Positions 11,722 to 44,176 of a stretch of DNA of 64,000 nt are shown here, piece after piece (within the stretch, counting starts at the first letter, position 1; the number at the start of each line of letters is the position of its first letter). The notes under the pieces are model-generated. The model saw only the letters and a program-made list of their open reading frames with translations. It did no database searches and was not told the origin of the DNA. The DNA is taken from contig WSXW01000008.1 in assembly GCA_009773495.1 (NCBI GenBank), positions 64,050-128,049 of the forward strand. The letters are read 5' to 3'. Made by a program: the position numbers and the translations under genes. Source of the stretch: Bacillota bacterium (GTDB lineage: Bacteria > Bacillota > UBA994).

Positions 11722-11740
11722 CGAAGGAGACTACGTCAGG

Positions 11741-14800: not shown

Positions 14801-14824
14801 TAAGAATTTCAGGGAGGAAGACGA

Positions 14825-16207: not shown

Positions 16208-16212
16208 ATGAC

Positions 16213-16776: not shown

Positions 16777-16779
16777 CAC

Positions 16780-19892: not shown

Positions 19893-19916
19893 TATGATAC
19901 CGGAGGGGTCTGAAAA

Positions 19917-20954: not shown

Positions 20955-20978
20955 ACATAAAGAAAGAGGATAGGCAAT

Positions 20979-23376: not shown

Positions 23377-23411
23377 TTCATAATTAACATGTGAAAGGAT
23401 AGTCATAATAT

Positions 23412-24536: not shown

Positions 24537-24547
24537 GGTGTTATATC

Positions 24548-25606: not shown

Positions 25607-25700
25607 GGATTGCACAGTCCGGCCGGGGGAAGCGCACTCCTAGGCTTAGTGCGGAGGGCGGTAATGAAACGAAGGCTGGCAGCAAGTTAGGAGGCAAAAA

Positions 25701-27146
25701 ATGACGATCATAGCCGTGATCATGGCCGGTGGGCGGGGAGAACGCCTGTGGCCGAAGAGTACAGCCAACAGGCCTAAACAATTCCAGAGCTTTGCAGGGG
25801 GGAAAACTCTCCTGCAGGAAGCGGCTGAGCGTATCAGCCACTTGGTGCCTTGGAGCCAAGTCTACGTTGTTACCGGGCGGCAGTACTCGGCAACGGTTTA
25901 CAGCCAGCTCCCTAGCGTCCCAAAGGAAAATGTAATCTTGGAGCCAGTAGGTCGTGATACCGCTCCTTGCATCGGTTATGCCGCGCTTCACGTAGAAAAG
26001 AAGTTTCCTGGGGCTACGATGTTAGTCTTGCCCGCCGACCACTATGTTGGTGATGACGAAGAATTTGTAGATATCCTCAAAGCAGCCACAGAAGCGGCCC
26101 AAAGGGATCACGCCCTTGTCACCGTAGGGCTTAAGCCCACTCGACCGGAAACAGGTTACGGATATATTCAAGTGGGTCTGGAGACATGCCGTTTTGGACA
26201 TCGACTGCTGCATCGGGTTAGCCGCTTTGTCGAGAAGCCGCCTTTCGAACGGGCAGTGCGGCTGTACCAGGACGGGCAACACCTTTGGAATAGTGGGATG
26301 TTTATCTGGCGTGTGGAGGTGATCCGTTCAGCGATTGCCCTGTACCTGCCGGAACTTCACCAAGGGCTTGAGGAGATTAAAGTTGCAGTCGGTACACCAG
26401 CTGAACAGGCTGTGGTGGAACAGCTCTTTCCCCGTTTGCCCAAGGTCTCTATCGACTTCGGGGTAATGGAGAAGGCGGACCGGGTGCTTGTGGTTCCGGC
26501 ATCGTTCCCCTGGGACGATCTAGGCAACTGGGTCGCCCTTGACCGCGCCTCTTCCCGGGGTGATGCTGGCAATAACCTGTCGGGCCAAGTCGGCACCATT
26601 GATACCCATAACTCTATCATCCATGATGACGACGGAATTACTGTGACGGTCGGTGTTAAGGATTTAATTATTGTGCGTTCGGGTGGGTCTCTGCTGGTCT
26701 GTGACAAGGCTCGGGCGCAGGATGTGAAGAAGGCTGCGGCCTTGGCCGACGAACTGGGAGGAGACCCAGACTACCCGGTGGACTACCGGATAGTCGAGAA
26801 ACCATGGGGCCGGGAAATTTGGTGGGGCGTCACCGAGGCCTACGTTGGCAAGATTCTGGAGGTCAGGGCCGGGCACAGCCTCAGCCTCCAATACCATCGC
26901 CAGAAGCTGGAGACTATGTTTTTTCAGAAGGGCCGAGGTACGCTCATCCTTGACGAAAAGGAGCTGACGATTCAGCCAGGGATGGCGGTGACGATCCGGC
27001 CCGGGACTGTACACAAGATTGTTGCCGAGAGCGATCTTACCATCCTAGAGGTATCGACTACGGAGCTGGATGATGTGGTGAGGTTGCAGGATACGTATGG
27101 ACGGGCGCAGACCGAAGTGCCGGTAACGCCCGAACCGCAAAAATAA
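25701..27146 (+). CDS. manC: mannose-1-phosphate guanylyltransferase / mannose-6-phosphate isomerase (bifunctional, C-terminal cupin)
   Basis: 481 aa with an N-terminal nucleotidyltransferase (IMAGGRGERLWP) and a C-terminal cupin. RBS taggagg. Confidence 0.85.
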   Translation: MTIIAVIMAGGRGERLWPKSTANRPKQFQSFAGGKTLLQEAAERISHLVPWSQVYVVTGRQYSATVYSQLPSVPKENVILEPVGRDTAPCIGYAALHVEKKFPGATMLVLPADHYVGDDEEFVDILKAATEAAQRDHALVTVGLKPTRPETGYGYIQVGLETCRFGHRLLHRVSRFVEKPPFERAVRLYQDGQHLWNSGMFIWRVEVIRSAIALYLPELHQGLEEIKVAVGTPAEQAVVEQLFPRLPKVSIDFGVMEKADRVLVVPASFPWDDLGNWVALDRASSRGDAGNNLSGQVGTIDTHNSIIHDDDGITVTVGVKDLIIVRSGGSLLVCDKARAQDVKKAAALADELGGDPDYPVDYRIVEKPWGREIWWGVTEAYVGKILEVRAGHSLSLQYHRQKLETMFFQKGRGTLILDEKELTIQPGMAVTIRPGTVHKIVAESDLTILEVSTTELDDVVRLQDTYGRAQTEVPVTPEPQK

Positions 27147-27285: not shown

Positions 27286-28533
27286 TCAAGCAGTCTCCAT
27301 TTTCACGTTTGGCAAGACGAGAAGAGCAACAAGAAAAGCACACACGATACCAGCAGCTCCCACAATAAATACTAGTCTATGCGATTGTAGCCATAAGAAT
27401 CCGACCAAAATTGGTACAAGAGTCGCATTTATCCCGTCAATAGATGAAAGCAAACCCAAGACAAACTGAGCGTTGCTTTCAGGGAAACAATCAAAGAAAT
27501 ATGAGAATGATATAGGGGCAAATACATCCTTTAATCCAGTAATAAGATAAGCTATAACAAAGAATACAGTGCTGCCCGTGAACGCAAAAGTCAAGGCAGG
27601 TATTAAGTCTATGAAAATATCAATAAGATATATCAGTTTCCTACTCCTCATATCAAAGAAGTACCCCAGTACCAGGCCCAAGATAGCGTTCACAATCGTT
27701 GTAAATCCCACCAAAGTCAACAGTCTTGAAACGTCAAATCCAAGCTGAAGGCCGAGTAACGGTAAGAAACGTACCGAGATGTTATAAATAGAGGTAAAAA
27801 CGTTTATGAGAACAAACGCCCAGAATACTCTCTTCTTCAAAACAGCACTCAGTGTAAGCTCATCGCTTCCATTTTTCTTAACGTCATCTGACATAGTCTT
27901 GTCTGAATGAGTAGCATTATTATTTTCAGTTATCTGATCGGATAAAATGCTCTTTGTTCTCATAATAAAAATGACTAAGCAAGTTAGAACGAAGAGGGAA
28001 GAAAAAATGAAGTACAACTTCAAAATACTAAATCTCGTAGTCAAGAATCCACCAGCTAATAGACCAACCGAAATAGCACCAAAAAGAAAAAAATCACGCA
28101 GTGCAAAATATTTGCTCCGATTCCCACTTTCTATTACTGTGTTAATTTTATTTCCTATTGAGTAATTAAAGATTACCCTTGATAGTAAGATCATATAACA
28201 AAACACAAAAACAAGCCAAGCAGGTAGCAAATCCAAACGTAGCATTATCGCACCTAAGAATCCTATGAGTGAACCTAATGTTCCAAGTGCATATGCGCCG
28301 AACTTTTTTATTGAAAGGTAAGCAATTATCGTAGGAGCAAAAATAAAAGTAAATGAAACGATTGATAAAAAGATCCCGTAGGTCGCTTCAGACAATCCGT
28401 GATAGGCAATAACTAGAGGAACTGCTTTTTCGAGAGGCCCGCTTGCTAGGAAGAATAGCGCATACAACAAAAAGAAGTACTTATATCTTTTGCCTGCAAA
28501 TACTTTGTATGAATTTATGAAGTTTGTTAACAC
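27286..28533 (-). CDS. MFS transporter
   Basis: 415 aa with 12 predicted TM helices. Strongly AT-rich (about 33% GC) relative to flanks. Confidence 0.7.
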   Translation of the reverse strand: MLTNFINSYKVFAGKRYKYFFLLYALFFLASGPLEKAVPLVIAYHGLSEATYGIFLSIVSFTFIFAPTIIAYLSIKKFGAYALGTLGSLIGFLGAIMLRLDLLPAWLVFVFCYMILLSRVIFNYSIGNKINTVIESGNRSKYFALRDFFLFGAISVGLLAGGFLTTRFSILKLYFIFSSLFVLTCLVIFIMRTKSILSDQITENNNATHSDKTMSDDVKKNGSDELTLSAVLKKRVFWAFVLINVFTSIYNISVRFLPLLGLQLGFDVSRLLTLVGFTTIVNAILGLVLGYFFDMRSRKLIYLIDIFIDLIPALTFAFTGSTVFFVIAYLITGLKDVFAPISFSYFFDCFPESNAQFVLGLLSSIDGINATLVPILVGFLWLQSHRLVFIVGAAGIVCAFLVALLVLPNVKMETA

Positions 28534-28649
28534 ATTTCCCCCTGCCTTTTTTACAGTATATTACAATAGCTCGTCAAAGTTTCTGTTCTGTGCTCTGGCA
28601 ATGTTCCTGAGCCTAGCTCTAACAGAGGCTGCCATATTCTTGGGGTTGT

Positions 28650-29252
28650 TCATAATAGCACCTCGAAGTAGGTTTTTACTGGGCCGTAAATACGCATCTT
28701 CTTAGCATATTCAGTGAGGAGCTTGATGTTTATCTGTGGTTTGCCAACGTAATTGCCCAGAATCTCCTTCACTAGATCGAGTCCTATCCTATTTCTATGA
28801 ACAATCGCGTCGCAGACGGTTTTCTCAAGGTCGTATACCATGACCACTGAGTTTCCTTCTTGAGCGGATGTAATACCCGTGTTGTAGCGCACATCATTAT
28901 ATTTCACGACCTTGATTTTGGGATAGGGTGGAAGGGATGGTATTCGCATATGTCGAGGGACTGCAAGGGTATGTTGCTTCGGAATATAGGTGCTGAGCTC
29001 CCAATAAGCAAACGCTGAGTAGAGGCAGAAGACACCGGCTGGGACAATCTGAGCTACTTCTGCCATTTCGCTATATTCGATACTGCTTTCTACCCATCGA
29101 TAGAGGCCTCGCTTAATACGTTGTATTTCACCATCAATGATTAGATTACTTATGTCATAGTCGCTAAGTCCGCATTCTTTGAGAGCGCTGGTGGGCAAAT
29201 GAACTATTTTATTCCTAAGGGCTCTGATTGCACGTAGTTTCTCGTCGTTCAC
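28650..29252 (-). CDS. AbiEi-like antitoxin/transcriptional regulator (COG5340 family), orphan (no AbiEii partner)
   Basis: 200 aa. GVFCLYSAFAYWELSTYIPKQHTLAVPR matches the AbiEi consensus. An AbiEii gene would be expected at lower coordinates, where the MFS gene lies instead. Confidence 0.6.
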   Translation of the reverse strand: MNDEKLRAIRALRNKIVHLPTSALKECGLSDYDISNLIIDGEIQRIKRGLYRWVESSIEYSEMAEVAQIVPAGVFCLYSAFAYWELSTYIPKQHTLAVPRHMRIPSLPPYPKIKVVKYNDVRYNTGITSAQEGNSVVMVYDLEKTVCDAIVHRNRIGLDLVKEILGNYVGKPQINIKLLTEYAKKMRIYGPVKTYFEVLL

Positions 29253-29649
29253 TAGCCATCTTTCCTTTCTATTGATACGGTCATTATATCCGTCAATCTG
29301 CGGTCAGGCAATACAGTCAGCATTTGGCCACTTTGGGGGAGCGGAAACAATCAATGACCGCTGTGATCGAGAATTAAGGTGTCAAACAAGGTGTCAAGCT
29401 CTCTTCCAAAAACGTCGGCGGCACGGATGCTATTGACAGCTATCCACTCTATATGGCGATGTTTCTATAGGTCAGAGGCGTATGGTCATGTAGCACGAGG
29501 TTTCTGGGCGTGTACAACCTTGACTAAGCGTGCCCACGGATGTTAGTGTAAAGGTAATAATTGGTGAGCCCGAGAGGAGGAAAGTCGATGAGATTACGTG
29601 AGTTGCTCACCGTGGCGAGGACTCCTTTCGCAACGATGAGCTTATCTAG

Positions 29650-30132: not shown

Positions 30133-30921
30133 ATGCTTGAGCTTGAGCGACTGGCTTTCTTAGATGTGAATTTGGCCAGCGGACGAGTACAGTTTGGCAG
30201 TGGGTTACCTCAGGTTAACCCAGCCTGCCGGTACTTGCGGGAGGCACGGTATGCCTTTAGCGATGAGGGAGTGGAGGGCTTGGAGGAGCTCTACTATATG
30301 TATCGCGATGTGGCTAGGTGCGAAGACAGGCCGATTATCGCACAGCACGGCCTTCGTTTTGATATTACCCTCATCCCCGCGGGGTTGATTGGCCAAGAGT
30401 ATAATAAGACTGTGGGGCATTACCACCCAGTTAAGCTGGGGACTGTATATACCTATCCGGAAGTATACGAGGTACTGCATGGAGAGGCTACATACCTGCT
30501 GCAGCGCCCTAGTGTATCTAGGGGTGAGGTGGATGATGTGGCGGTAGTTGTGGCGAGGGCGGGAGACAAGGTCGTTATCCCCCCTGGGTACGGCCATATT
30601 ACTATCAATGCGGGGGTCGAACCGCTACTCATGGCCAACTGGGTAGCCTCGGAGTTTGATTCGATATATGGTGAGATTAAAGAGCTAAAGGGTGGGGCCC
30701 ACTACCTAGTAGGCAGTGGTAGGGAACCCGAGTGGATTAACAACCACAGATACATAAAGGCACCTGACATAAGGAGGGTGGAGACAAGGGACTACCCGGA
30801 GTTGGGACTATTTAGCGGGCAGCCCATGTACAAGCTAATTATTGAAGCACCGGAGAAGTTGAGGTTTTTGACCCATCCTGAAGAATATCAATGGGTTAAG
30901 CTATGTCACCTGCACAACTAG
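30133..30921 (+). CDS. cupin-type glucose-6-phosphate isomerase-like protein (archaeal-type cPGI family)
   Basis: GHYHP...EVYEVLHGEA and IPPGYGHITINAG metal-binding cupin motifs. Strong RBS aggagg 7 nt before the ATG at 30133; the ORF track starts at 30043. Confidence 0.6.
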   Translation: MLELERLAFLDVNLASGRVQFGSGLPQVNPACRYLREARYAFSDEGVEGLEELYYMYRDVARCEDRPIIAQHGLRFDITLIPAGLIGQEYNKTVGHYHPVKLGTVYTYPEVYEVLHGEATYLLQRPSVSRGEVDDVAVVVARAGDKVVIPPGYGHITINAGVEPLLMANWVASEFDSIYGEIKELKGGAHYLVGSGREPEWINNHRYIKAPDIRRVETRDYPELGLFSGQPMYKLIIEAPEKLRFLTHPEEYQWVKLCHLHN

Positions 30922-30933
30922 GGGGAGTCATAA

Positions 30934-32787
30934 ATGAAGAAGGCAAACCGCATGGTCTTTCTAGCGGCGGTAGACGGGATTTCAATATATGCTGCTGGAT
31001 TGCTGGGGAGCACCATTATTCTTAATGGGGGTTTCTCTTTAGAGTACATAACCGTATGGACCAAACTAGCGCTGCTTATTTTGCCTATGCAGATTATGCT
31101 CAACTACTACGTAGGCCTATACTCCAAGGTGTGGACTTATGCTAGCATAGGTGAGCTTGTGAGTGTGCTAAAGGCATCTACTCTAGGTAGTGGGGCTTTG
31201 TTTGTTGTGTTGAGGTTCAATCCTAACCTAGGAATGGGGTCCCTGCGAACTTCTACGCTGTACTGGCTCTTAGCCACGGCGGTGATAGGGGCCTTGCGCT
31301 TTGCGATGCGAATACGGCGTGAAATTGTGGTAGACGCATCTGCTAAGGGCGTGAGAGCACTGATTGTGGGTGCGGGGGATGCCGGGCATATGCTGCTGCG
31401 TGAGATACAGAAGCACCCGGAGCTCAAGATTAAGGCGGTGGTGCTGGTGGATGACGAGCCCTCTAAACAAGGCATGAGCATTTGTAACGTGCCGGTGGTG
31501 GGGCCGCTAGCAGATTTAGAGATAGCCATAGACGAGCACGATATTAAACAGGTAATCCTAGCGATGCCTACGGCCAAGCCTGAGGTGGTGCGCCGGGTGG
31601 TACAGAGCTGCACTAAGCTTGGGGTGGATGTGCGGACCATGCCTGGACTGTATGAGGTTATTAATGGCTACTATACTCCTACTCGTCTGCGTGAGGTGCA
31701 GATTGAGGATCTCTTGCGTAGAGAAGTGACTAAAGTTGACTTCGCGGCGATAGGTTCGTACATAACCGGTAAGAGAGTGTTAGTTACGGGGGCAGGTGGC
31801 TCGATAGGCTCGGAGCTCTGCCGCCAAATCATGGGGTGCGGTCCAGCAGAGATAATACTACTAGGTCACGGGGAGAATAGCATCTTTAACATTCATCGTG
31901 AGTTGCTAGGCAAAGCGGGCGGTATTGCGGTGGTGCCGATTATAGCCGATGTGCAGAGCCCGCAGCGTATGAAGGGTGTGTTTGGCAAGCATAGGCCGCA
32001 AGTGGTTTTCCATGCAGCGGCGCATAAGCATGTGCCGTTGATGGAGAGCAATGCAGTTGAGGCTATTAAGAATAACGTGTGGGGAACGAGTAATGTAGCG
32101 GAGGCGGCCTCAGAATATGGGGTGGAGCGGTTTGTGCTTATCTCATCGGATAAGGCAGTAAACCCGACCAACGTTATGGGCGCTACAAAGCGCGCGGCGG
32201 AAATGGTAATACAAAAAATCAGCCTCGGTTCAGGTACTAAATTTATGGCGGTGCGTTTTGGCAATGTGCTGGGCAGTAGGGGGAGCGTTGTCCCCATATT
32301 TAAGGAGCAAATTGCCGAGGGTGGGCCGGTTACGGTAACCCATCCAGATATGGAGCGCTATTTTATGACTATACCTGAGGCCGTGTCGCTGGTGCTGCAG
32401 GCGGGTTCCATGGGGCAAGGCGGTGAAGTTTTTGTGCTCGATATGGGCAGCCCGGTTAAAATTACGGATATGGTTAGAGATCTAATAGCGTTATCGGGGC
32501 TACGGCCCGATGTGGACATTAAGATTGTGTATACAGGTATAAGACCTGGCGAAAAGATGTATGAGGAGCTGCTTACTGCCGAAGAAGGCACGGCGGCTAC
32601 CAAGCATAAGAAGATCCTGGTGGCCAAACAAGCGGCGGTGGTAGTCGAGGCGGTCAATGAAATGCTGGCGAGTCTGTCGCAGATGGTGCACGGCGACTGC
32701 GCCAATAATGCAGAAGTGATAAAACTGACTCAGCTAGCGTTGCAAAGTAAGTCGTTTGAGCAGGTGGCGGCAGCTGAGACTCAGTGA
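30934..32787 (+). CDS. polysaccharide biosynthesis protein CapD/PglF/WbpM-like (membrane-anchored NDP-sugar 4,6-dehydratase)
   Basis: 617 aa with N-terminal TM helices and two Rossmann domains (VTGAGGSIGSEL). Confidence 0.8.
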   Translation: MKKANRMVFLAAVDGISIYAAGLLGSTIILNGGFSLEYITVWTKLALLILPMQIMLNYYVGLYSKVWTYASIGELVSVLKASTLGSGALFVVLRFNPNLGMGSLRTSTLYWLLATAVIGALRFAMRIRREIVVDASAKGVRALIVGAGDAGHMLLREIQKHPELKIKAVVLVDDEPSKQGMSICNVPVVGPLADLEIAIDEHDIKQVILAMPTAKPEVVRRVVQSCTKLGVDVRTMPGLYEVINGYYTPTRLREVQIEDLLRREVTKVDFAAIGSYITGKRVLVTGAGGSIGSELCRQIMGCGPAEIILLGHGENSIFNIHRELLGKAGGIAVVPIIADVQSPQRMKGVFGKHRPQVVFHAAAHKHVPLMESNAVEAIKNNVWGTSNVAEAASEYGVERFVLISSDKAVNPTNVMGATKRAAEMVIQKISLGSGTKFMAVRFGNVLGSRGSVVPIFKEQIAEGGPVTVTHPDMERYFMTIPEAVSLVLQAGSMGQGGEVFVLDMGSPVKITDMVRDLIALSGLRPDVDIKIVYTGIRPGEKMYEELLTAEEGTAATKHKKILVAKQAAVVVEAVNEMLASLSQMVHGDCANNAEVIKLTQLALQSKSFEQVAAAETQ

Positions 32788-32816: not shown

Positions 32817-35411
32817 ATGAAAAACAAAGTTCGTCCGGTTGTGGCAAAGAAAGCGGGTTGGAGCTTAAACCGTTATATAGACTACGTATGGTTTGCGGTG
32901 GTGTTTCTATTAGCTAGTGCATTACCGTGGCTTAGGGGCTTGTACTGGCCGCTGCATCGGCTGGGGGTGCAAGCGCTGCTGCTTGTTTTTATTGCATTCT
33001 GGGTGGTGGCTAAAACGGGCAAGGGACCCATAAAGGTTACACTGCTCGATGCCTTGGCGGTTGTGCTGGCCATGCTTTATGTACTGGGTATAATAACTCC
33101 GGCATCGATGAATGGGGCTATTCAGGGGGCTATTACTTGGGTTTCGCTTATGGCCCTCTTTTTGTGGGTGCGTTCGCTAAGGTTAGGGGATAAGGGCCGG
33201 GGTATTGTTGTGGGAGGCATTGCGGCGGCCGGGGTATTGTGGGCGTTGCTAGGAATGGCTGCGCATAACAGTCTGATTAAGTTTCCGATCTGGTTTCAGG
33301 GGGCTCGTCTAGCGGCAGGCTTTGAGTATCCTAATGCAGCAGCGGGCTTTTACCTTATGGCCCTAGTGCTGTGCCTGTACTCGGGCTTTGTGTCGGAGAG
33401 TAAAAGAGTCAAGTGGGGGTATGCTGCGGGGGCGGTTGTGCTCCTTGTTGCTTTGCTGCTTACACAGTCGCGTGGGGCGTGGCTGGGGCTCGCCATAACC
33501 TTGTTGCTCTCATTGTGGTGGTTGAGAGCAAGGGCAGTAGATTTTGCGGTGCAGGCAGGCCTGATTCTCGCTGTGGGGTTAGCTACAGCAGGGTTAGTAA
33601 TGGCTAGGCCGAGTGTTCTGAGTATGGGCCTGTCCCTGTTAGCGGCGGTAATTTGCGGTGGATTGGTTTCATTGATAAGACCGCTGGGTGTACGCAAGAG
33701 TGTGGCTGTTATTGGCGGTATCTGCATATTGCTGCTAGCTGGGGTGCTGTGGCTAACGATGAGTCCAAACGTTTATACATTGAAAAATATTACAAAGGAT
33801 GTAGTATGGCAAACAATTACATACGGTGCGGGCCAGCTACCTGCCGGGGATTATAGGTTTGAAGGAACGTTTAAATTGGCAGCACAGGGTGATCAGCCCG
33901 CCACCGGGCATGTTGCAGTGCAGGTTATAGGTGCAGATAACAAGGGCACCGCGGTTGGCTATGGAAGCTTCGCTGAGAGCGGTTCGTCAAGAGCGGTGAA
34001 TTTTACTGTTCCTCCCGGGGTTAAGCGAGTAGAAGCTGTTTTTTCTTCAGGGCAGCCCCAGACTACAGTCACACTTGAAAATCCACGGATAGTCGGCGCA
34101 AGAAGTGTCACGTTAAAACACTACTTGCATAAAGCCCTTCCGCACTCAATTGCGGCGAGGCTTTCGCAGATGAGCTGGAGGAGCTTGGCTGCAGACGGAC
34201 GCCTCGTGTTCATTGAGGATGGTCTTAAGGCCGTCAGGCAAAAGCCGGTCTTTGGCTTTGGCGGGGGTGCGTGGAATGCAGTTTATCATGGCGTTCAGAG
34301 CTACTTCTATGGCTCAGGGCGAGCCCACGCTGACTGGTTGGACATAACCCTAGAGGTTGGAATAGTGGGGCTTTTGATCTATTTGGCTATAGTTATCGGG
34401 TCGCTGATGCCGTTTGTTAGACGGGAGCAAGTGAATTCCAAGCTTGGGCTTGGCATGGCTTCGCTCGCGATTTTTGTACATTCTTTTGGCGAGGCCCTGC
34501 TGGCGTTTCCGTCTAGCTACTATTTTCTGACAATCTTGCTGGGGGTCTTATCGTCACGGGAGACAGAACGCCAGATAGTGTTTTTACCTAAGATTAAGGG
34601 CCTGAAAGCATCGACCCTCGTAGCAATCATGTTGTGCGCATGTGTTACAGTCGGATTTTGGCTAGCTGAGGTCGAACTACAGGCCTTGTTTAGCGAGAAA
34701 AAAGAGATGGAGAGTGTGAGCGCACTAAAGTCCATAGATAGAGTGCTCCTTTTTAACCCATACAGTTTTAACGCAATGATGACTAAGCTAGACTTTTTAA
34801 GCCAGTTGCCAAACAATCGCAACGAATACGGAGCAATACTGAAGCGTGCGCAATACTTAGAGCCGCACGATCCTAGGGTCCCAAACATGCTCGGATGGCA
34901 TTACTTGCTGACCGCGCACTTTAGTGACGCATTAGTTCAATTTCAAAGAGGAAAGAGTCTGCAGCCCTACAATGTGCAAGGCTATGAGATGCTGGCTATA
35001 GCGGGGGCCCGCGCTGCTTTTAGCTCTGCCGCGAGTGGAGACGGTGCGTGGCAGGGCTTTGCGGAGACGGTTATTGATGTAGAGCAGGAGTTTTTAGAGA
35101 CGCGTAATGCCGCTCGGCAGGCACTGCTTCCGCTTAGCATAGTGCCTTTTGAGCAGGGGCAACCGTTTATGTTTGCTGTTGGCGCGGCACACGCTTTGCT
35201 TGGCAACTTCGATGCCGCACGGACTTCATTTAGTAAGGCCTTGGAGGGTTCCGACCAAACCTTGCGGGATAGGTCGACATTGTGGCTTGCCTGGGGCCTG
35301 CTCAGGCAGGGTGACAATGTACAGCCTCTAACAATGATTGAGCGGTTGTTGTCGCAGGAGGCATATCTGGAGGAGTGGAATGCATTGCTTAAGATAAGCG
35401 GCGGAAAATAA
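32817..35411 (+). CDS. O-antigen ligase-family (Wzy_C) membrane protein with C-terminal TPR-like domain; candidate oligosaccharyl:protein transferase (WsaB/WsfB-like)
   Basis: About 12 TM helices with a QSRGAWLGL ligase motif, then a soluble C-terminal helical repeat region. RBS gggggag before the ATG at 32817. Directly upstream of the surface protein gene. Confidence 0.55.
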   Translation: MKNKVRPVVAKKAGWSLNRYIDYVWFAVVFLLASALPWLRGLYWPLHRLGVQALLLVFIAFWVVAKTGKGPIKVTLLDALAVVLAMLYVLGIITPASMNGAIQGAITWVSLMALFLWVRSLRLGDKGRGIVVGGIAAAGVLWALLGMAAHNSLIKFPIWFQGARLAAGFEYPNAAAGFYLMALVLCLYSGFVSESKRVKWGYAAGAVVLLVALLLTQSRGAWLGLAITLLLSLWWLRARAVDFAVQAGLILAVGLATAGLVMARPSVLSMGLSLLAAVICGGLVSLIRPLGVRKSVAVIGGICILLLAGVLWLTMSPNVYTLKNITKDVVWQTITYGAGQLPAGDYRFEGTFKLAAQGDQPATGHVAVQVIGADNKGTAVGYGSFAESGSSRAVNFTVPPGVKRVEAVFSSGQPQTTVTLENPRIVGARSVTLKHYLHKALPHSIAARLSQMSWRSLAADGRLVFIEDGLKAVRQKPVFGFGGGAWNAVYHGVQSYFYGSGRAHADWLDITLEVGIVGLLIYLAIVIGSLMPFVRREQVNSKLGLGMASLAIFVHSFGEALLAFPSSYYFLTILLGVLSSRETERQIVFLPKIKGLKASTLVAIMLCACVTVGFWLAEVELQALFSEKKEMESVSALKSIDRVLLFNPYSFNAMMTKLDFLSQLPNNRNEYGAILKRAQYLEPHDPRVPNMLGWHYLLTAHFSDALVQFQRGKSLQPYNVQGYEMLAIAGARAAFSSAASGDGAWQGFAETVIDVEQEFLETRNAARQALLPLSIVPFEQGQPFMFAVGAAHALLGNFDAARTSFSKALEGSDQTLRDRSTLWLAWGLLRQGDNVQPLTMIERLLSQEAYLEEWNALLKISGGK

Positions 35412-35688
35412 CGCTACAAGTCAAAATTTCTTTTGTTACGGTATCCTTACAAGAACAATTGAAAAATTGTTTGAGAGTTTTGGGCATAATATACTAATCA
35501 TAGTCCAAGGAAAACAGGGAGTTGCTTTTGTTTGTACTAGGTAAGTTCCCTGTGCCTCTTGTGAATCAAGCTTTCTCCCGAGTGCCCTAACGAGGGGTGC
35601 GAGGTCGATCATCAGGGTTGAAGCTACGGGCGCAGGTTGTATCCGGGACGCGAACTGATAAACAATTCAAAGGAGGGAAACTTTACTA

Positions 35689-38600
35689 ATGAAGAAGATA
35701 TTTGCTCTTCTATTAAGCGTAGCGATGGTTGCTAGCTTGTTTGTAGGCGTAGCTTTTGCGGCTGGCGGCACTTACACCGTAGCCTACAAAACTGGCGCAT
35801 CTACTGCGGCTGGCGCTAACTCTACTCTAGTATTTACTGTAACTCCGCCCGTAAGTGGCACAGCCACAACAGTCAAAGTCGACTTTGCGGCTAGCGGTTT
35901 CGTGCCCATCGGCGCTGCTACCTGGGCCGGCAGTACCAACGTTACCTCGAATATTGTAGGCAACGTTATCACCATCGCTCGCACCGAAAATATAACTACA
36001 GGCACTGTTGAAATCCCTGTTCGCAACCCGCTGACTGCTAAGGTAGTCAACCAAGCGGTTTCTGCCGATGCTTTTGTAGTTACCACTGGCACCCCACCTA
36101 CTGCCCTCGTAGTTGCTACTTCTGTTAGCGTTCTTAATGTTAACTACACAGTTACCCCTAGCATAACCACACCCGTTATCGGTGGAACATCTACTGTTTC
36201 TTTCAATGTTACCCAAGGCGGGGCTGCTGTAACTGACGCCTTAGTTTACAATTTTTACAGAGGATTGACCCTGTTGACTCACGGCTCTACCTCTACTGGC
36301 AACTTCAGTGCAGCTATTTCCTTCACTGCTGAACCCGGTGCTTTTTCTCAAGAGTACACCGTTAACGTTGCAAAGGCTACTGACACTACTGTCACTGGCA
36401 GTACAAAGCTTACAGCTCTTTACAACCTCACTGTTGACGGCATTACCACAGTTAAGTATCTCGACGCTCGCACTCTCACCGGCAGGCTTACCAATGCTGC
36501 TGGCACGGGCATTGCTAACGCTCCCATAACTCTTCGCAACAAGACAAACGCTTCTGATGTAGCTAATGCTACCACAGCTGCTGACGGCTCCTTCGCTATG
36601 ACCGCAGTGTTCGCTGATGCTGCTGTTTATGCATTCAACGTCGGGACTGTTGAGTATTCTACATTTACCGTTGCTGGACTTGACCTCACAGTAGCAGCAG
36701 CGCCTACCTCCATCGTGAAGACTCTCGGCACAACTGCTATGACCTTCACTGTGAGGCTTCCTGGCACCACAACCACTCCTACAAATGCAAATCCTGAGAT
36801 CCGCATCCTCAATCCAGACGGCACTGTCCGTCTAGATTGGACCTCTACTTTGGTATGGTCCGCTCCAGCTGACCTAGCTACCGGTACCTACAAGGTAGAA
36901 GCTCGCTGGGAAGATACTGCTAACGGTAACACCCCTACGGTTTCTGACCGTACCGGTTCTACCACCTTTGCAGTAACGAATCCTTCCAAGCTCAACGTAT
37001 CCTATGCTCCTACTGTCGCTGTCGACGGCGTACTCACCGTTGGTGCTAATGGCGTAGCCATCACCATCCGTGACGTTGCTGGCGCTGGTTTCGTGGGCGC
37101 TACTGCCACCGCAGCTCAAATTAAGCAGGTTCTTATCACTGTTACTGGCCCTCTCACATCGGCAGTAACTATTAATACCGCTGTTACTGCTCCTGGTGCG
37201 GCGGCTCCTTGGAATGGCTCCCTAATTACTGTAACCCCCACGTTCAACATCGAACAAGCTGGCAACATCGTTGTTACTGGTACAGTGACCTTCGGTGACA
37301 ACTCCACGGAGACCTTCACCAGGACCTATACCAACAACGGCTGGATTGTTACAACTGAGAAGGTTCTCGGCACTGTTGGCGACGTAGTAACCCTCCGCGC
37401 AGTAGTTACTACCGCTGCTGGAGTACCAGTTAACAATGCTATCGTTACTTGGACTGGCGTAGCCAACGCCTTCTTGACCGCGAAGGACGCTGCCGGCGTC
37501 TGGATTACCCCAGCTGCCGCAGTACCTGTTGATGGGTCCATTACAAACATCAACAACGGCGTATACGAAAAGGAAGTTAAGCTCAATACGAACGGTGATG
37601 TAACAGTTGGTGTGACCACCACTGCCCTTGCCGCTCGCGCTTCTCTTGTAGCTAATATTACCGGCCAAAACGTTTACACCGTAACTCCTAGCGTCTCTTC
37701 CGTAATTGCAACGCTTGCTACCCAGACCGTCAGGGTTGCTGTTACTAACGCTTCCGGCGCTGCTATGACCAACCTCCAGGCTCTTGATGTAACTGGTTCT
37801 ACCGGCGTTCTAGCGGCTCCTCTCGCTATCACTGATGCTACCATGTACGATGCAAATGCCGACGGCATTGTGGATGGCTACCAGTTCAGCGTTTCTCCGC
37901 TGGCTAGCGGTACCCTCACCATTACTGCTAAGACCGATAACGGCAACAAAATTGGCGTTGGGACCGTAGCTGTAGTAGCTCCTGGCGTTACCGTAACTGC
38001 TGCTGCTAAGGCTACTCAGAACGTAACTGAAAAGCTCAATGTTAAGGTTAACGACATGACCGGTACCCCTGCAGCAGCTCGCCCGATCTCCGTTAGGGTT
38101 ACTGCAGTCGGCGCATTCATGGAGCTCAAGACTGACGTTGCCACACCTGTTATACTCACAAATGGTACAGTTGAGAACCAAGCCCACCTAGTAGCTGCAG
38201 CTGCCGCTGAGCACAAGCTTCTAGTTACCGCTTGGGACTTTGTAGAAGCTACCCCCGTTGCTCCTCTTGTACGCGTAGAAGTCAGCTACAATGGCACAAA
38301 CTGGGTCAAGGCTGCTGACCTCGCTGTAACTCCTCTTGACATCACACTCAATAGCGACACCATTTTCGTAGGTGGCGTTAACAAGATCGATGCTACCGTT
38401 ACCGACGCTCACGGCGTAGCTTACGCTGGCAAGGCTGTTGCTGTTGCTGGTTCTACCGGCACAACCGATGCTAATGGTAAGGTCAGCCTGTTTGTTAACC
38501 CAAGCAGCACTGGCACCGCTACTCTTACCGTCGCAACCAGCCGCACTGGTGTAACCGCTAACAAGACGATCACCATCACTGCTGACAGCGTGAAGCCTGC

Positions 38601-39516
38601 TGTGGCTATCACCTCGGCTCCTGTTTCCGAAAAGGCTACCTATCTGCTGACGGGTACTTTCTCTGATAACCTCGGCGTAGCCAATATCTACGTAAACGGC
38701 GCCCCAATTCCGTTTATCGCAGCTCTTGGTACATTTGAGAGGACAGTTACCCTCGTAGATGGCGCCAATGTGTTCACAGTATTCGCCTTTGATGCAGCAG
38801 GCAATGGTGCCACGACCTCAATTACCGTTTCTTATGCTGCACCAATTACTCCTGCTCCAGTAAAAGATACTACCCTGCCGACCATTGTGATCGCCGCTCC
38901 AGCTACCGTTGCCACCGACTTTACGGTTGTTACCGTGACGGCTACCGACGCTGGCGGACTCGCACAAGTTGTTATCAACAATGTGCCGAAGTTCTTCATC
39001 CCTGGCAACACTGCAGTTGTAACCGAGCGGATCTCCCTCAATGAAGGTCCAAACGTAGTGACTGTAAATGTTGCCGACGTGGCTGGCAACTGGGCTACTT
39101 CGACGAGGACTATCACTTATACTAAGCCTACACCTCCTCCTGCTCCAGTTCCTGTAACGCACGTTATCACCATCGGCAAGGCTGATCCTGCCTTCGGTCT
39201 TGACGTACCTGCAGTAGCTAAGAATGGCCGCCTCATGGTTCCCTTCCGTTGGTTCGGCGAACGCATCCTCGGCGCTACAGTTGACTATAAGGTAGTTGCC
39301 GGTGTTGAGATCGTAACCCTCCATAAGGGTGGCACCCATGTTGAGCTAACCCTCAACAGCGCTATCGCTAAGGTTAACGGAGTTGCTGTTGCTCTTGATG
39401 TAGCTGCTTACGCTGAAGCTGGCCGTACACTCGTTCCGGCTCGCTTCCTAGCTGAAGCATTCGGCTACAAGATTGAGTGGCATCCCGCTACCAACAACGT
39501 TACCATCACCAAGTAG
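35689..39516 (+). CDS. large secreted Thr/Val/Ala-rich surface protein with Ig-like repeats and C-terminal copper-amine-oxidase-N-terminal-like (cell-wall-associated) domain
   Basis: Signal peptide MKKIFALLLSVAMVASLFVGVAFA. 1275 aa, low-complexity beta-rich. C-terminus RTLVPARFLAEAFGYKIEWHPATNNVTI matches Cu_amine_oxidN1. Strong RBS and a rho-independent terminator. Confidence 0.7.
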   Translation: MKKIFALLLSVAMVASLFVGVAFAAGGTYTVAYKTGASTAAGANSTLVFTVTPPVSGTATTVKVDFAASGFVPIGAATWAGSTNVTSNIVGNVITIARTENITTGTVEIPVRNPLTAKVVNQAVSADAFVVTTGTPPTALVVATSVSVLNVNYTVTPSITTPVIGGTSTVSFNVTQGGAAVTDALVYNFYRGLTLLTHGSTSTGNFSAAISFTAEPGAFSQEYTVNVAKATDTTVTGSTKLTALYNLTVDGITTVKYLDARTLTGRLTNAAGTGIANAPITLRNKTNASDVANATTAADGSFAMTAVFADAAVYAFNVGTVEYSTFTVAGLDLTVAAAPTSIVKTLGTTAMTFTVRLPGTTTTPTNANPEIRILNPDGTVRLDWTSTLVWSAPADLATGTYKVEARWEDTANGNTPTVSDRTGSTTFAVTNPSKLNVSYAPTVAVDGVLTVGANGVAITIRDVAGAGFVGATATAAQIKQVLITVTGPLTSAVTINTAVTAPGAAAPWNGSLITVTPTFNIEQAGNIVVTGTVTFGDNSTETFTRTYTNNGWIVTTEKVLGTVGDVVTLRAVVTTAAGVPVNNAIVTWTGVANAFLTAKDAAGVWITPAAAVPVDGSITNINNGVYEKEVKLNTNGDVTVGVTTTALAARASLVANITGQNVYTVTPSVSSVIATLATQTVRVAVTNASGAAMTNLQALDVTGSTGVLAAPLAITDATMYDANADGIVDGYQFSVSPLASGTLTITAKTDNGNKIGVGTVAVVAPGVTVTAAAKATQNVTEKLNVKVNDMTGTPAAARPISVRVTAVGAFMELKTDVATPVILTNGTVENQAHLVAAAAAEHKLLVTAWDFVEATPVAPLVRVEVSYNGTNWVKAADLAVTPLDITLNSDTIFVGGVNKIDATVTDAHGVAYAGKAVAVAGSTGTTDANGKVSLFVNPSSTGTATLTVATSRTGVTANKTITITADSVKPAVAITSAPVSEKATYLLTGTFSDNLGVANIYVNGAPIPFIAALGTFERTVTLVDGANVFTVFAFDAAGNGATTSITVSYAAPITPAPVKDTTLPTIVIAAPATVATDFTVVTVTATDAGGLAQVVINNVPKFFIPGNTAVVTERISLNEGPNVVTVNVADVAGNWATSTRTITYTKPTPPPAPVPVTHVITIGKADPAFGLDVPAVAKNGRLMVPFRWFGERILGATVDYKVVAGVEIVTLHKGGTHVELTLNSAIAKVNGVAVALDVAAYAEAGRTLVPARFLAEAFGYKIEWHPATNNVTITK

Positions 39517-39531: not shown

Positions 39532-39564
39532 GCAAAGACCCCCGCAAGGGGGTCTTTGCTTTTA
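39532..39564 (+). terminator. rho-independent terminator after surface protein gene
   Basis: gcaaagaccccc-gcaa-gggggtctttgc followed by tttt. Confidence 0.75.
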
Positions 39565-40082: not shown

Positions 40083-40091
40083 AACATGACC
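40068..40091 (+). repeat. left inverted repeat of IVS-like cassette 1 (aaacatgaatcatgaaacatgacc)
   Basis: 23/24 match to the reverse complement of 40516-40539. Overlaps the last codons of kal. Confidence 0.65.
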
Positions 40092-40127
40092 TTCACGGGG
40101 GAGTGGGTGCCCCATGCATACTCGAGC

Positions 40128-41551: not shown

Positions 41552-44176
41552 GTGAGAAAGAAGCTTGCCATCTTCGTAGTTCTGATGTTGCTGGTATCCG
41601 TAACTGCTGGTGCAGGAAACTACCCCACATTGCAGCCGCTGACTCCCGCACCGATCATGTGGTCCGGTACTATGATTGACGAAACCCCTGTAGCGTGGTT
41701 TGTTGAACTCTCCGGCTCGCCGTTAGTAGAGGGCGGAAATTATACAGCTCTTTGTAAAGAAAAAGATGCTTTCCGCTCTCAGGTGAAAGACGCTAAGCTA
41801 AAGGTCAAAGAACGATTTGCCTTTGATAGCCTATGGAACGGGTTTTCTGTGAGTGTTGCTCCCGAGGATGTTGACAAGCTCTCCCTGATTCCAGGGGTCA
41901 AGGCCCTATACCCTGTGGTCTTGTTCTCTCTTCCTCCGGTTTATCCTACCGAAACCCCAGAGCTTTTTACGGCCCTTGCTATGACTGGAGCGGACTATGC
42001 ACAGAATGAACTAGGGTTTACCGGCAAGGGAATTAAGGTCGGCGTAATTGACACCGGTATTGACTATACTCACCCGGATTTAGGCGGCGGCTTCGGCCCA
42101 GGGTACCGCGTGTACACAGGGTATGACTTTGTGGGGGATGCCTTCGATGCAAACCCTGCCAATGCTACGTTTAATCCCATCGCCGCACCGAAACTAGACC
42201 CCATGGATAAGGCCGGCCATGGCACCCATGTGGCCGGAATTGTGGGGGCGAAGGGTAGAGTAAAGGGGGTAGCTCCAGAAGTAACCTTTGGTGCCTACAA
42301 GGTATTTGGCACCGTGGGTTCGACCACGGCTGACGTAATATTGGCAGCCATGGAGCGGGCTCTTGCTGATGATATGGATGTAATTAACATGAGTATCGGT
42401 GCTGCATTCCAGTGGCCGCAATATCCCACCGCTGTGGCCAGCGACCGCTTAGTTAGAAAGGGTGTAGTAGTGGTTGCCTCTATCGGCAATAGCGGCACTA
42501 GCGGCTTGTATGCTGTGGGTGCTCCTGGCGTTGGCAAAGACGTTATTGGTGTAGCTTCCTTTGATAACAGCCATGTATACTTGCCGTCTTTCACGGTTTC
42601 TCCTGGTGGGAACGCCGTGGGTTACACAGCTGCTACAGCCGCTCCAGCCCCACCAAAGTCGGGCACTTTCGCTATGGCCCGTACTGGTACAAAAACCTCA
42701 CTGGCTGACGCAGCGAATCCTCTCCCTGCCGGCAGCTTAATCGACAAAGTCGCGCTGATACGGCGCGGTTCAGTAAGTTTTTATCAAAAGGCTCTCAATG
42801 CCCAAAACGCAGGGGCCAGAGGGGTGGTGCTGTACAATAACGCTCCAGGCAGTGTAAGCCCGACTGTGGCAGGTGCTGTTCCTATCACTATCCCCGTAGT
42901 GATGATTTCTCAGGTTGAAGGTGAACAAATCGACGATCTGTTTACTGCAGGCCATACTGTAGGAATTACCTGGACCGAAAATATGGTCAGTTCACCCAAT
43001 GCTACAGGCGGTCGCATTTCTTCCTTCAGCTCCTATGGTTTAGCACCTGATCTCAGCCTGAAACCCGACCTAGGTGCCCCCGGCGGCCAAATTTACTCCG
43101 CTTACCCCATGGCTCTTGGCGGCTATGCTACTCTGAGTGGCACTTCAATGTCTTCCCCTCATGTAGCAGGTGCGGCAGCACTGTTATTGCAGGCCAGACC
43201 CGAAATTTCGGCCAAGGCTGTCCGCACGATTTTGCAGAATGCTGCCCAGCCTAAAAACTGGCAAGGAAATCCTGGCCTAGGGTATCTTGATCAGGTTCAC
43301 CGCCAGGGTGCCGGCATGATTAATATTACAGACGCAATCTTAGCTACCACCAAGATAGAGCCATCCAAACTGGCTCTGGGGGAAAGCGAGTTTGGTCCGT
43401 CGGTAAGTACAATTAGCATTGAGAACGATGGCCCTTCAGCCGTCACCTATACCTTATCACACACACCCGCGCTCGCTACCGGTCCAAACTCCTTCTTAGT
43501 TAGCGCCCAAGCGGGCTTTGCCACTGTAGAATTCAGTGTGCCCAGTATTACTATTGCGGCTGGTGCAACGGCAACTGTACAAGCAACTGTTACGGCCCCT
43601 GGACTGGCGGAGGGTGCGTTATACGGTGGGTACCTAGTGTTCACTGGTAGCGACGAGAGGATCCTACGCGTACCTTACGCTGGCTATAAGGGCGACTACC
43701 AAAAGAGAATAGTACTTACCCCCACTGCTAATATCTTTCCGTGGTTGGCAAGCCTAGAAGGTGGTTCGTACTATAAGCAGGGTGATGCCACCTTCACTTT
43801 CACAAATGGAGACATCCCTTACTTCCTAGTACACTTTGACCATCACCCTCAACTGTTCAAGGCCGAAGTCTATGAGACAGGAACAGGCAAATACATGCAT
43901 CAGGCCTTTGAATACAAATACCTACCCCGCAACTCTACCGCAGGTGGCTTCTTTGCATTTGCCTGGAATGGAGTTGTTACCAAGGGCAACAAAGAATCGA
44001 TGATACCCAATGGTTCTTACGTGGTAAAATTGTCGGTACTAAAGGCGCTTGGTGACGCTTCTAATCCAGAGCATTGGGAAATGTGGACGTCACCTGTGAT
44101 AAAAGTTGAAAATGGAGAGAACCCTGTGGATAAGCCCATAGGAAACGACAAGGCCGAGGCTCCTAAAGACAAGTAG
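41552..44176 (+). CDS. S8 family serine peptidase (subtilisin-like, cell-envelope type) with signal peptide, PA-domain insert and C-terminal beta domains
   Basis: VGVIDTGID, HGTHVAG and GTSMSSPHVAG catalytic triad motifs. 874 aa. RBS aaggagg. A terminator follows. Confidence 0.85.
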   Translation: MRKKLAIFVVLMLLVSVTAGAGNYPTLQPLTPAPIMWSGTMIDETPVAWFVELSGSPLVEGGNYTALCKEKDAFRSQVKDAKLKVKERFAFDSLWNGFSVSVAPEDVDKLSLIPGVKALYPVVLFSLPPVYPTETPELFTALAMTGADYAQNELGFTGKGIKVGVIDTGIDYTHPDLGGGFGPGYRVYTGYDFVGDAFDANPANATFNPIAAPKLDPMDKAGHGTHVAGIVGAKGRVKGVAPEVTFGAYKVFGTVGSTTADVILAAMERALADDMDVINMSIGAAFQWPQYPTAVASDRLVRKGVVVVASIGNSGTSGLYAVGAPGVGKDVIGVASFDNSHVYLPSFTVSPGGNAVGYTAATAAPAPPKSGTFAMARTGTKTSLADAANPLPAGSLIDKVALIRRGSVSFYQKALNAQNAGARGVVLYNNAPGSVSPTVAGAVPITIPVVMISQVEGEQIDDLFTAGHTVGITWTENMVSSPNATGGRISSFSSYGLAPDLSLKPDLGAPGGQIYSAYPMALGGYATLSGTSMSSPHVAGAAALLLQARPEISAKAVRTILQNAAQPKNWQGNPGLGYLDQVHRQGAGMINITDAILATTKIEPSKLALGESEFGPSVSTISIENDGPSAVTYTLSHTPALATGPNSFLVSAQAGFATVEFSVPSITIAAGATATVQATVTAPGLAEGALYGGYLVFTGSDERILRVPYAGYKGDYQKRIVLTPTANIFPWLASLEGGSYYKQGDATFTFTNGDIPYFLVHFDHHPQLFKAEVYETGTGKYMHQAFEYKYLPRNSTAGGFFAFAWNGVVTKGNKESMIPNGSYVVKLSVLKALGDASNPEHWEMWTSPVIKVENGENPVDKPIGNDKAEAPKDK

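Follow-up and report, generated by a model that had tools for sequence, protein, structure and literature searches.

To what acceptor does an O-antigen-ligase-like membrane protein pass its glycan when its gene stands directly upstream of one for a large, Thr-rich surface protein? The question is raised by two genes at 32817-39516 in a stretch of 64,000 nucleotides (the window) of contig WSXW01000008.1, from a metagenome-assembled genome (MAG) of a Bacillota bacterium. The first encodes an 864-aa protein of the Wzy_C/WaaL superfamily with a C-terminal tetratricopeptide repeat (TPR) domain, referred to below as the ligase, and the second a 1275-aa secreted protein that resembles surface-layer (S-layer) proteins. 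For Gram-positive bacteria, S-layer O-glycosylation has been elucidated in only a few Bacillales, and the transferase step, assigned to WsaB or WsfB, is mostly defined by prediction. Here we propose, with a confidence lying midway between acceptance and rejection, that the ligase works as a protein O-oligosaccharyltransferase of the WsfB type, with the adjacent S-layer-like protein as its acceptor. The proposal draws on the combination of Wzy_C with a TPR domain predicted to face outward, on Wzy and Wzz being encoded separately, on a ligase gene that behaves like a core gene, on the pairing of the two genes in all six subclade members examined, on the coupling of one relative to a complete PglCDEF set, and on the Bacillota taxonomy of the family.

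The ligase and the surface protein beside it

Both open reading frames (ORFs) on which the sequence-only reading of this stretch was built are confirmed. The pair comprises the following features.

32817..35411, + strand: ligase gene; Wzy_C/WaaL-superfamily glycan ligase with C-terminal TPR domain, 864 aa, candidate protein O-oligosaccharyltransferase (Pfam, AlphaFold)
33771..34106, + strand: carbohydrate-binding-module (CBM)-like beta-sandwich insert, ligase residues ~319-430, eight strands, at the start of the large outer loop (DSSP of the models)
34695..35408, + strand: predicted extracytoplasmic TPR domain of the ligase, residues ~627-864 (~240 aa) (profile and fold matches, positive-inside count)
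35434..35688, + strand: putative promoter and leader of the surface-protein gene (box, -35/-10, leader block, Shine-Dalgarno sequence; sequence inspection)
35434-35452, + strand: conserved box TGTTACGGTATCCTTACAA
35467-35472 and 35490-35495, + strand: putative -35 (TTGTTT) and -10 (TATACT), 17-nt spacing
35594-35608, + strand: conserved block GGGGTGCGAGGTCGA in a leader of ~187 nt
35670-35677, + strand: strong Shine-Dalgarno sequence AAGGAGGG
35689..39516, + strand: surface-protein gene; S-layer-like secreted protein, 1275 aa (Pfam, composition)
39532..39563, + strand: terminator-like hairpin, perfect 12-bp GC-rich stem GCAAAGACCCCC / GGGGGTCTTTGC, loop GCAA, then TTTT; core also found by scan

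The ligase gene starts with an ATG at 32817 (an alternative GTG lies at 32784), and its product is identical to GenBank KAF0196348.1, titled 'MAG: O-antigen polymerase [Bacillota bacterium]'. As the sequence-only reading had described it, the protein joins a Wzy_C domain to a soluble C-terminal TPR domain. The match to Pfam Wzy_C (PF04932, clan CL0499) lies above threshold (3.7e-10, 40.2 bits, gathering score 31.7), with its best stretch at residues 453-523; Pfam PglL_A and Wzy_C_2 gave no match at E<=1. The single sequence falls below the cut-off for TPR_2 (22.5 bits vs 27); at the level of the family the TPR domain is unambiguous, a profile of 90 ligase relatives matching solved TPR proteins with E up to 1e-140. 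The AlphaFold model (predicted local distance difference test (pLDDT) score 93.5, predicted template modelling (pTM) score 0.92) retrieved TPR structures with Foldseek, e.g. the TPR domain of OGT, and PilW/PilF.

Fifteen helices are present in both of two independent AlphaFold models (pLDDT 93.5 and 91.5). Because the short loops carry 26 Lys and Arg residues on the proposed inner side vs 5 on the outer, we place the N-terminus inside and a 190-aa loop (316-505) outside, and both this loop and the TPR tail are predicted from the models to face outward. The 15th helix (residues 596-626) follows three helices downstream of the big loop and carries the TPR domain outside; coming as an extra helix after the WaaL-like core, it would place this domain where secreted proteins are. 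Nearly invariant across the 90 relatives are R219, R462, D468, G480-x-G-G-x-x-W486, H504 and H555. The ligase thus has the form that marks the Wzy_C/O-antigen ligase superfamily, a polytopic membrane protein with a large outer loop bearing conserved Arg and His.

The 1275-aa protein, GenBank KAF0196349.1, has an AXA-type signal peptide (residues 1-24), no Cys and a pI of 5.4. Thr (16.5 %), Val (13.8 %) and Ala (15.1 %) make up 45 % of its residues, and Ser accounts for 4.7 % vs 5.9 % in the other window genes; its earlier description as Thr/Ser/Val-rich is therefore right for Thr and Val, to which Ala must be added, and wrong for Ser. Ig-like repeats, claimed for the protein in general, were recovered as two C-proximal Glucodextran_B matches (~970-1140), and no Pfam family matched the N-terminal ~960 aa. 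The expected Cu-amine-oxidase-N-like C-terminus is a Cu_amine_oxidN1 domain at residues 1171-1273 (39199-39507; 4e-26). No relatives of solved structure were found for the protein, and the Bacteroidetes-type sequon D(S/T)(A/I/L/V/M/T) was uninformative (5 matches in 1275 aa). For the N-terminal 936 aa a single homologue was retrieved from 5.8e9 clusters (72 % identity), and alignment with it gave 58-80 % identity over the N-terminal part and 84-91 % over the C-terminal anchor part. Housekeeping proteins encoded in the flanks are 83-92 % identical to those of L086. The protein fits an S-layer protein because a conserved anchor is joined to a fast-evolving exposed part. It is also predicted to be secreted, free of Cys, weakly acidic and Thr-rich, and its gene appears monocistronic, with strong putative expression signals. 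Judged from sequence, it is probably an S-layer or S-layer-like protein. A precedent for the anchor is Swol_0133 of S. wolfei, a predicted S-layer protein with a C-terminal Cu_amine_oxidN1 domain and the most abundant protein of the membrane fraction (PMC3582634).

The spacer of 277 bp between the two genes holds the promoter and leader listed above. Box, promoter and leader block recur 5' of orthologous genes in L086, L089, L083, L081 and L091, so that the surface gene appears to have its own conserved expression signals, like known S-layer genes, which are transcribed on their own (PMC2943079). The shared upstream regions are window 35434-35688, L086:7560-7883, L089:10578-10981, L083:12503-12722, L081:3840-4320 and L091:2458-2700. 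What these S-layer-like genes have in common is the box TGTTACGGNATNCTTACAA, a promoter of the form ATTGTT-17-TATACT, and a leader, 150-190 nt long, that contains a GGTGCRAGGTCGA block; a CUCC-rich leader stretch is predicted to base-pair with the Shine-Dalgarno sequence. The consensus fold of five leaders was weak (-5.6 kcal/mol), and no Rfam match was found for the conserved leader. These elements may represent a regulator site and a leader that stabilises the mRNA or controls its translation.

The closest relatives of the ligase (29-35 % identity) form a subclade of which six members, including that of the window, were examined for gene order.

Window: 864-aa ligase, 277 bp, 1275-aa protein
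L089 (P0009): PglC-like phosphoglycosyltransferase, PglD, DegT, PglF, ligase, 405 bp, surface gene, contig end after 46 codons
L081 (P0007): ligase, 481 bp, protein of at least 775 aa
L083-85 (P0013): S8 peptidase, ligase, 220 bp, 1006-aa protein
L091 (P0008): ligase, 243 bp, 1109-aa protein, then S8 peptidase
L002 (P0002): ligase, small Cu_amine_oxidN1 protein, S8 peptidase, 1015-aa protein

The pairing, which the sequence-only reading had seen in the window, recurs throughout: in 6/6 members the ligase gene lies directly upstream of, or two genes from, a gene for an S-layer-like Cu_amine_oxidN1 protein. These neighbours show 42-50 % mutual identity, and all contain 14-16 % Thr and no Cys. 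In most of them the likeness to the window surface protein is largely confined to the signal peptide and an anchor region of ~220 aa, with weak additional alignment in L091 (35 % over ~870 aa) and L081 (30 % over ~300 aa); in L089 the signal peptide (first 25 residues) is identical to that of the window protein.

Two features of the subclade bear on the glycan donor. The L089 ligase start overlaps the pglF stop, coupling this ligase to a bacillosamine-type set (PglC, PglD, DegT, PglF) much as in the Neisseria pgl system. The bacillosamine-type pathway feeds the protein glycosylation systems of Neisseria and Campylobacter. Furthermore, an identical ligase (P0002) stands beside different upstream glycan gene sets in L002/L003 and L004, which fits the relaxed donor specificity of PglL (Neisseria) and PilO/TfpO (Pseudomonas). 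These enzymes belong to the same superfamily and transfer glycans en bloc from undecaprenyl diphosphate (Und-PP) to Ser/Thr outside the cytoplasm. They differ from the window ligase in coming from diderm Proteobacteria and in their size (~400-600 aa), lacking its 15-helix layout, its ~110-aa beta-sandwich insert and its ~240-aa TPR domain.

The closest architectural parallel is WsfB of Paenibacillus alvei CCM 2051T, a predicted S-layer O-oligosaccharyltransferase with Wzy_C and a C-terminal TPR domain; WsaB of Geobacillus stearothermophilus NRS 2004/3a, likewise a predicted one, lacks the latter, and a TPR protein, WsaA, is encoded just upstream of it (PMC2943079). The earlier comparison with WsaB/WsfB-type transferases therefore agrees with the description of WsfB, and WsaB itself is without the TPR domain. 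The likeness in fusing Wzy_C and TPR is drawn from the published description, sequence homology being shown for a Paenibacillus/Cohnella family, which is homologous to that of the window over the full length including the TPR domain (hhalign E 1e-94). No protein named WsfB was present among the 120 listed of 744 matches to a profile of seven Paenibacillus/Cohnella members, and we found nothing relevant in the literature on Firmicutes Wzy_C-TPR O-oligosaccharyltransferases beyond the 2010 review. In contrast to the WsfB and WsaB systems, the candidate acceptor here is anchored by Cu_amine_oxidN1 rather than by S-layer homology (SLH) domains, the ligase has a CBM-like beta-sandwich in its catalytic loop, and the host lineage is an uncultured, Peptococcaceae-like member of the Clostridia known from a MAG.

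The glycan locus and the pathway it may encode

Upstream of the pair, a co-directional glycan cluster spans 9722-27146 and contains everything that the sequence-only reading had attributed to it: a PglC-like transferase, Wzz, Wzy, glycosyltransferases (GTs) and nucleotide-sugar genes.

9722..11041, + strand: Wzz/CpsC-type chain-length determinant (Pfam Wzz 1.3e-9, GNVR 6.4e-10), left end of the locus
11125..12553, + strand: PglC-like phosphoglycosyltransferase (198 aa) and short-chain dehydrogenase/reductase (SDR)-type epimerase/reductase (270 aa) (Bac_transf 6.5e-56, Epimerase 2.9e-22; G+C 41 %)
12900..17679, + strand: CDP-3,6-dideoxyhexose pathway, RfbF, RfbG, RfbH, RmlC-like epimerase, SDR reductase (NCBIfam equivalogs)
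17981..18574, + strand: IS1595-family transposase fragment within the glycan locus (Zn_ribbon_IS1595 1.7e-15; start of the DDE domain only)
18999..27146, + strand: low-G+C island, GT2, GT2, 462-aa Wzy_C, GT4, GT4, GDP-mannose 4,6-dehydratase (GMD), ManC (Pfam, gmd equivalog)
20979-22367, + strand: 462-aa Wzy_C protein, 11 hydrophobic segments, probable repeat-unit polymerase
27286..29467: interruption of major facilitator superfamily (MFS) transporter (27286-28533, - strand), AbiEi (28650-29252, - strand) and AAA_14/DUF4143 remnant (Pfam)
30133..32787, + strand: cupin-type sugar-phosphate isomerase (GPI) and PglF/WbpM-like membrane UDP-GlcNAc 4,6-dehydratase (617 aa) (PF06560 4.9e-41, Polysacc_synt_2 6e-122; gene call in L001)
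41552..44176, + strand: secreted S8 subtilase, 874 aa (Peptidase_S8 9.5e-54, PA, fn3_5)

NCBIfam equivalogs above cut-off comprise glucose-1-phosphate (G1P) cytidylyltransferase, CDP-glucose 4,6-dehydratase, RfbH and RmlC; the product of 9722-11041 was below cut-off for the NCBIfam polysaccharide chain-length families. The description of the ligase as the last gene of the locus holds in that the glycan cluster lies upstream, and fails in that the MFS, AbiEi and AAA_14 genes intervene and the ligase belongs to a separate unit. In this unit GPI, PglF and the ligase are separated by gaps of 12 and 29 bp and share a backbone G+C of 52 %, and from their spacing they form one apparent operon.

The GT, Wzy and GMD genes (ManC excepted) have a G+C of 37.6-42.6 % vs 52 % for GPI, PglF, the ligase (51.7 %) and the surface protein. 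Serotype-specific Wzy proteins are encoded among GTs, at low G+C, and co-vary with them; this describes the 462-aa protein, which had no relative in 80 fetched loci, and does not describe the ligase. Since an island-embedded Wzy_C protein of 462 aa and a Wzz are present, the 864-aa protein is not needed as a polymerase. From its backbone G+C, its position at the island edge and the recurrence of an identical P0002 beside different glycan sets, it behaves like ligases and not like Wzy polymerases. The locus resembles surface-layer glycosylation (slg) loci in having an initiating phosphoglycosyltransferase, low-G+C central GTs and nucleotide-sugar genes. In slg clusters the lowest G+C is found in the strain-specific central genes, and the Geobacillus S-layer gene lies close to the cluster (PMC2943079). 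Those clusters carry wzm/wzt ABC-transporter genes, which were not found in the window locus, where Wzy and Wzz are encoded instead; the transporter genes are a trait of the known examples and not of the enzyme.

From this gene content the following pathway can be proposed. An Und-PP-linked repeat unit would be started by the small PglC-like transferase, the first sugar probably being a 6-deoxy-N-acetylhexosamine (6-deoxy-HexNAc) made with the PglF-like dehydratase, and extended by the GT2 and GT4 enzymes with CDP-3,6-dideoxyhexose and GDP-mannose-derived sugars. After flipping by an exporter that would be encoded outside the window, the unit would be polymerised by the 462-aa Wzy under the control of Wzz. 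The ligase would then pass on the whole chain in one block, to Thr, Ser or Tyr residues on the S-layer-like protein as the latter emerges from the Sec channel. Catalysis would rely on the conserved outer-loop Arg and His (R219, R462, H504), the outward TPR domain would hold the protein acceptor and the CBM-like insert would contact the glycan. The finished glycoprotein would finally bind the cell wall through Cu_amine_oxidN1.

Several further observations concern the surroundings. The glycan locus shows signs of a mobile or variable island, namely the IS1595 fragment, the low-G+C genes at 18999-25606 and the AAA_14 remnant. The latter, at 29342-29467 (+ strand), was recognised when the AAA_14 protein of L086, used as a tblastn query, matched with 90 % identity over 42 aa; in L086 the AAA_14/DUF4143 gene is intact upstream of GPI. 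The AbiEi antitoxin-like gene (28650-29252, - strand) lies between the cluster and the ligase unit, and the AbiEii partner known from L002:737-2217 does not adjoin it, the MFS gene standing there instead. This opposite-strand MFS protein is the only polytopic transporter near the glycan locus; relatives have MurJ-like flippases nearby (L083:2359-3885, L028:14496-16067). No LCP, CpsB or CpsD genes were found in the 64-kb window.

Downstream of the surface gene, 39687-46400 holds genes for a 4HBT thioesterase, BKACE, CoA-transferase A/B and small 23S-rRNA-IVP-like proteins (40243-40497 and ~46463-46795), a set that resembles lysine-fermentation genes and recurs in the same order in L086, which adds a thiolase. 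A large secreted S8 subtilase like that at 41552..44176 recurs by ligase/S-layer-like pairs (L091:6350-9454, L083:5931-9884, L002:13585-18534; that of L083 has cohesin/dockerin-like matches), and could possibly be a processing protease for the surface protein.

Protein or wall polymer as acceptor

An exhaustive HMMER search for relatives of the ligase returned 2189 cluster representatives at E<=1e-3; 814 of them reach <=1e-10 and 28 reach <=1e-30, and their lengths range from 700 to 1040 aa. Scanning of GTDB species genomes gave 74 ligase-family loci, almost all in Bacillota (Syntrophomonadaceae, Peptococcaceae, Desulfofundulus, Desulforudis, Moorellales, Symbiobacterium, Dethiobacter, Paenibacillus, Cohnella). 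Some loci carry more than one gene: two full-length Wzy_C-TPR copies are present in L026 and L069, and a second, more distant copy in L044 and L068; in L026 each paralogue has its own Wzz beside it, which suggests duplicated modules.

In a census of neighbours based on our own ORF calls and iterated hidden Markov models (HMMs) over the family loci, genes with SLH or Cu_amine_oxidN1 domains were enriched beside the ligase (22/129 at +-1 vs 9/305 at +-5 to 9; Fisher p = 1e-6). In most Clostridia loci (L065:7961-9727, L028:7044-8747, L035:7621-8775, L055:12034-13542 and ~25 more) a conserved partner of ~570-610 aa is encoded directly 5' of the Wzy_C-TPR gene. Its N-terminus forms a conserved membrane anchor (MGKLYxNRTLxGNIxLVVFLAFL); a domain of ~400 aa without Pfam match comes next, then either three SLH domains or one Cu_amine_oxidN1, and the protein could be a carrier or acceptor, or a scaffold for polysaccharide machinery. 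The subclade loci are without it. Because SLH and Cu_amine_oxidN1 are swapped within this one orthologous family, Cu_amine_oxidN1 gains support as a wall-association module, as the sequence-only reading had supposed when it called the domain envelope-associated.

A number of observations weigh against a protein acceptor. One comes from the close relative L086/L088, which is 83 % identical to the window in GPI, 86 % in PglF, 87.5 % in 4HBT, 90 % in BKACE, 89-92 % in the CoA-transferases and 75 % in the surface protein. Between pglF and the surface gene this relative has a LytR_cpsA_psr (LCP) ligase, a 313-aa Cu_amine_oxidN1 protein and a spacer of ~1 kb (L086:4942-6856, L088:322-2236), and no trace of a Wzy_C-TPR gene was found in that slot; conversely, the window has no LCP gene. 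The surface gene thus keeps its place beside the ligase slot whichever type of ligase fills it, which leaves a wall polymer in play as acceptor.

The wider family adds to this. Many Clostridia loci are capsule-like, with the order CpsB, ~580-aa partner, ligase, Wzz, CpsD-like ATPase, and phosphoglycosyltransferase or PglF, and most of these have no second polytopic Wzy candidate within 10 kb. As to the enzyme, the Foldseek matches of the beta-sandwich insert in the PDB (CBM16, CBM4, CBM61 and EclA; E 5e-4 to 2e-2) point to carbohydrate rather than protein contacts. The insert has no counterpart in P0002-P0006 and P0008, and the alignments of P0007, P0009, P0011 and P0013 run through it unbroken; P0002 and P0008 nonetheless adjoin an S-layer-like gene. 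Family members of ~1000 aa have larger inserts, and P0006 has one within the TPR tail. The alignment of the ligase family with E. coli K-12 WaaL (b3622) by hhalign was weak (probability 40 %, E 3e-4). It pairs TQSR219G of the ligase with the TQTR motif of WaaL, whose Arg is the essential R215. No solved WaaL structure was among the Foldseek matches returned for the ligase model. No Wzx/MurJ-like flippase and no Wzm/Wzt ABC exporter were found in the 64-kb window, and the lack of a flippase counts on the same side.

With an LCP enzyme in the same slot and the wider family in capsule-like modules, a cell-wall-polysaccharide ligase or polymerase is a serious alternative. In its stronger form, which we regard as possible if on the unlikely side, the ligase would pass an Und-PP-polysaccharide to a non-protein acceptor at the outer face, such as a secondary cell-wall polymer, a murein linkage unit or a glycolipid anchor. 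The S-layer adjacency would then reflect envelope-gene clustering, and Cu_amine_oxidN1 might even have this polysaccharide as its ligand in the wall. LCP enzymes normally attach polymers to peptidoglycan, although LcpA of Actinomyces oris reportedly glycosylates a wall-anchored protein. They resemble the ligase in acting on Und-PP-glycopolymers at the outer face of the membrane and, in L086/L088, in genomic slot, and differ in an unrelated fold and chemistry (phosphotransfer to the C6-OH of N-acetylmuramic acid (MurNAc)).

Besides this swap, the CBM-like insert in the outer loop and the usual family context of Wzz, CpsD, CpsB and a wall-anchored partner, a non-protein acceptor has a precedent in WpaA and WpaB of B. 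anthracis (PF13425), polytopic proteins of clan CL0499 from a monoderm Firmicute. They are proposed secondary-cell-wall-polysaccharide polymerases or ligases whose depletion disturbs S-layer assembly (PMC6030368). They differ from the window ligase in belonging to another Pfam family and in their proposed substrate, a conserved secondary cell-wall polysaccharide and not a variable O-antigen-like glycan. No TPR domain is known to us in either. Nor does synteny of this kind require protein glycosylation, since the S-layer genes of B. anthracis adjoin the csaAB wall-polymer genes.

Four points nonetheless speak against a non-protein acceptor. TPR is a protein-binding module and is predicted to face outward here. 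The glycan donor is encoded by a variable, O-antigen-like island of low G+C, unlike a conserved wall polymer of the kind that an anchoring domain has to recognise. The ligase/surface-protein pair is kept in all six subclade members examined. Finally, we know of no WaaL-type enzyme that transfers to peptidoglycan or a secondary cell-wall polymer.

That the ligase is instead a Wzy-type polymerase of a capsule or exopolysaccharide, its TPR domain docking Wzz or the wall-anchored partner and the 462-aa Wzy_C protein serving another glycan or being redundant, we consider improbable. The GenBank title would suit it, and most family loci have genes for Wzz and a CpsD-like ATPase directly after the gene, with no other polytopic Wzy candidate within 10 kb. 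The window island, however, has its own, highly divergent Wzy, and neither the backbone G+C of the ligase nor the association of identical P0002 with different glycan sets is expected of a polymerase. Throughout the genus Paenibacillus, moreover, orthologues are conserved with 34-71 % identity and do not vary in length, unlike serotype-specific polymerases. The close relative replaces the gene by an LCP ligase and not by a polymerase, a swap from which we infer that the window ligase is a transferase acting on exported Und-PP-glycan.

A conventional WaaL would have in its favour the shared superfamily, the O-antigen-like donor locus and the label 'Selenomonadales bacterium' given by its submitter to the MAG bearing P0002; WaaL of E. 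coli K-12 also combines Wzy_C with a large outer loop with conserved Arg/His. That the ligase joins O-antigen to lipid A-core in a diderm Firmicute is nevertheless so improbable that we reject it on taxonomy and context: its relatives lie almost entirely in Bacillota groups that we take to be monoderm (the P0013 cluster is labelled Peptococcaceae), so that a lipid A-core acceptor is unlikely and not expected in this lineage, no lipid A, core or outer-membrane genes were found in the 64-kb window, nearby envelope proteins carry wall-binding domains (Cu_amine_oxidN1, LysM), and WaaL enzymes have, to our knowledge, no 15th helix or external TPR domain, E. coli WaaL also lacking the beta-sandwich insert.

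The O-glycosylation module postulated by the sequence-only reading is partly supported: architecture, predicted topology, locus content and gene pairing fit it, and the LCP swap and the capsule-like wider family keep a role in making or attaching a wall polysaccharide a serious alternative.

Implications of the ligase/surface-protein pair

A broader proposal, tentative and in our view rather doubtful, sees in the entire Wzy_C-TPR family a monoderm counterpart of WaaL, which would couple polysaccharides made by Wzy and Wzz covalently to wall-anchored proteins that serve as dedicated carriers. In the subclade this role would fall to the S-layer protein and, elsewhere, to the ~580-aa partner anchored by SLH or Cu_amine_oxidN1. 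If true, this would be a third way to fix capsule-like or O-antigen-like polymers to the Gram-positive envelope; the exchange seen between L086 and the window suggests that it would be evolutionarily interchangeable with the attachment of polymers to peptidoglycan by LCP enzymes.

If the pair in the window is functional as a protein O-glycosylation system, such systems would extend to uncultured Peptococcaceae-like Clostridia, to S-layers anchored by Cu_amine_oxidN1 and to a Wzy/Wzz-dependent donor pathway, and ligase and acceptor would form a compact two-gene module testable in a heterologous host. Together, the synteny of the family and the natural exchange of LCP and Wzy_C-TPR ligases make it possible to test whether Wzy-dependent polysaccharides of monoderm bacteria are fixed to peptidoglycan or to protein.

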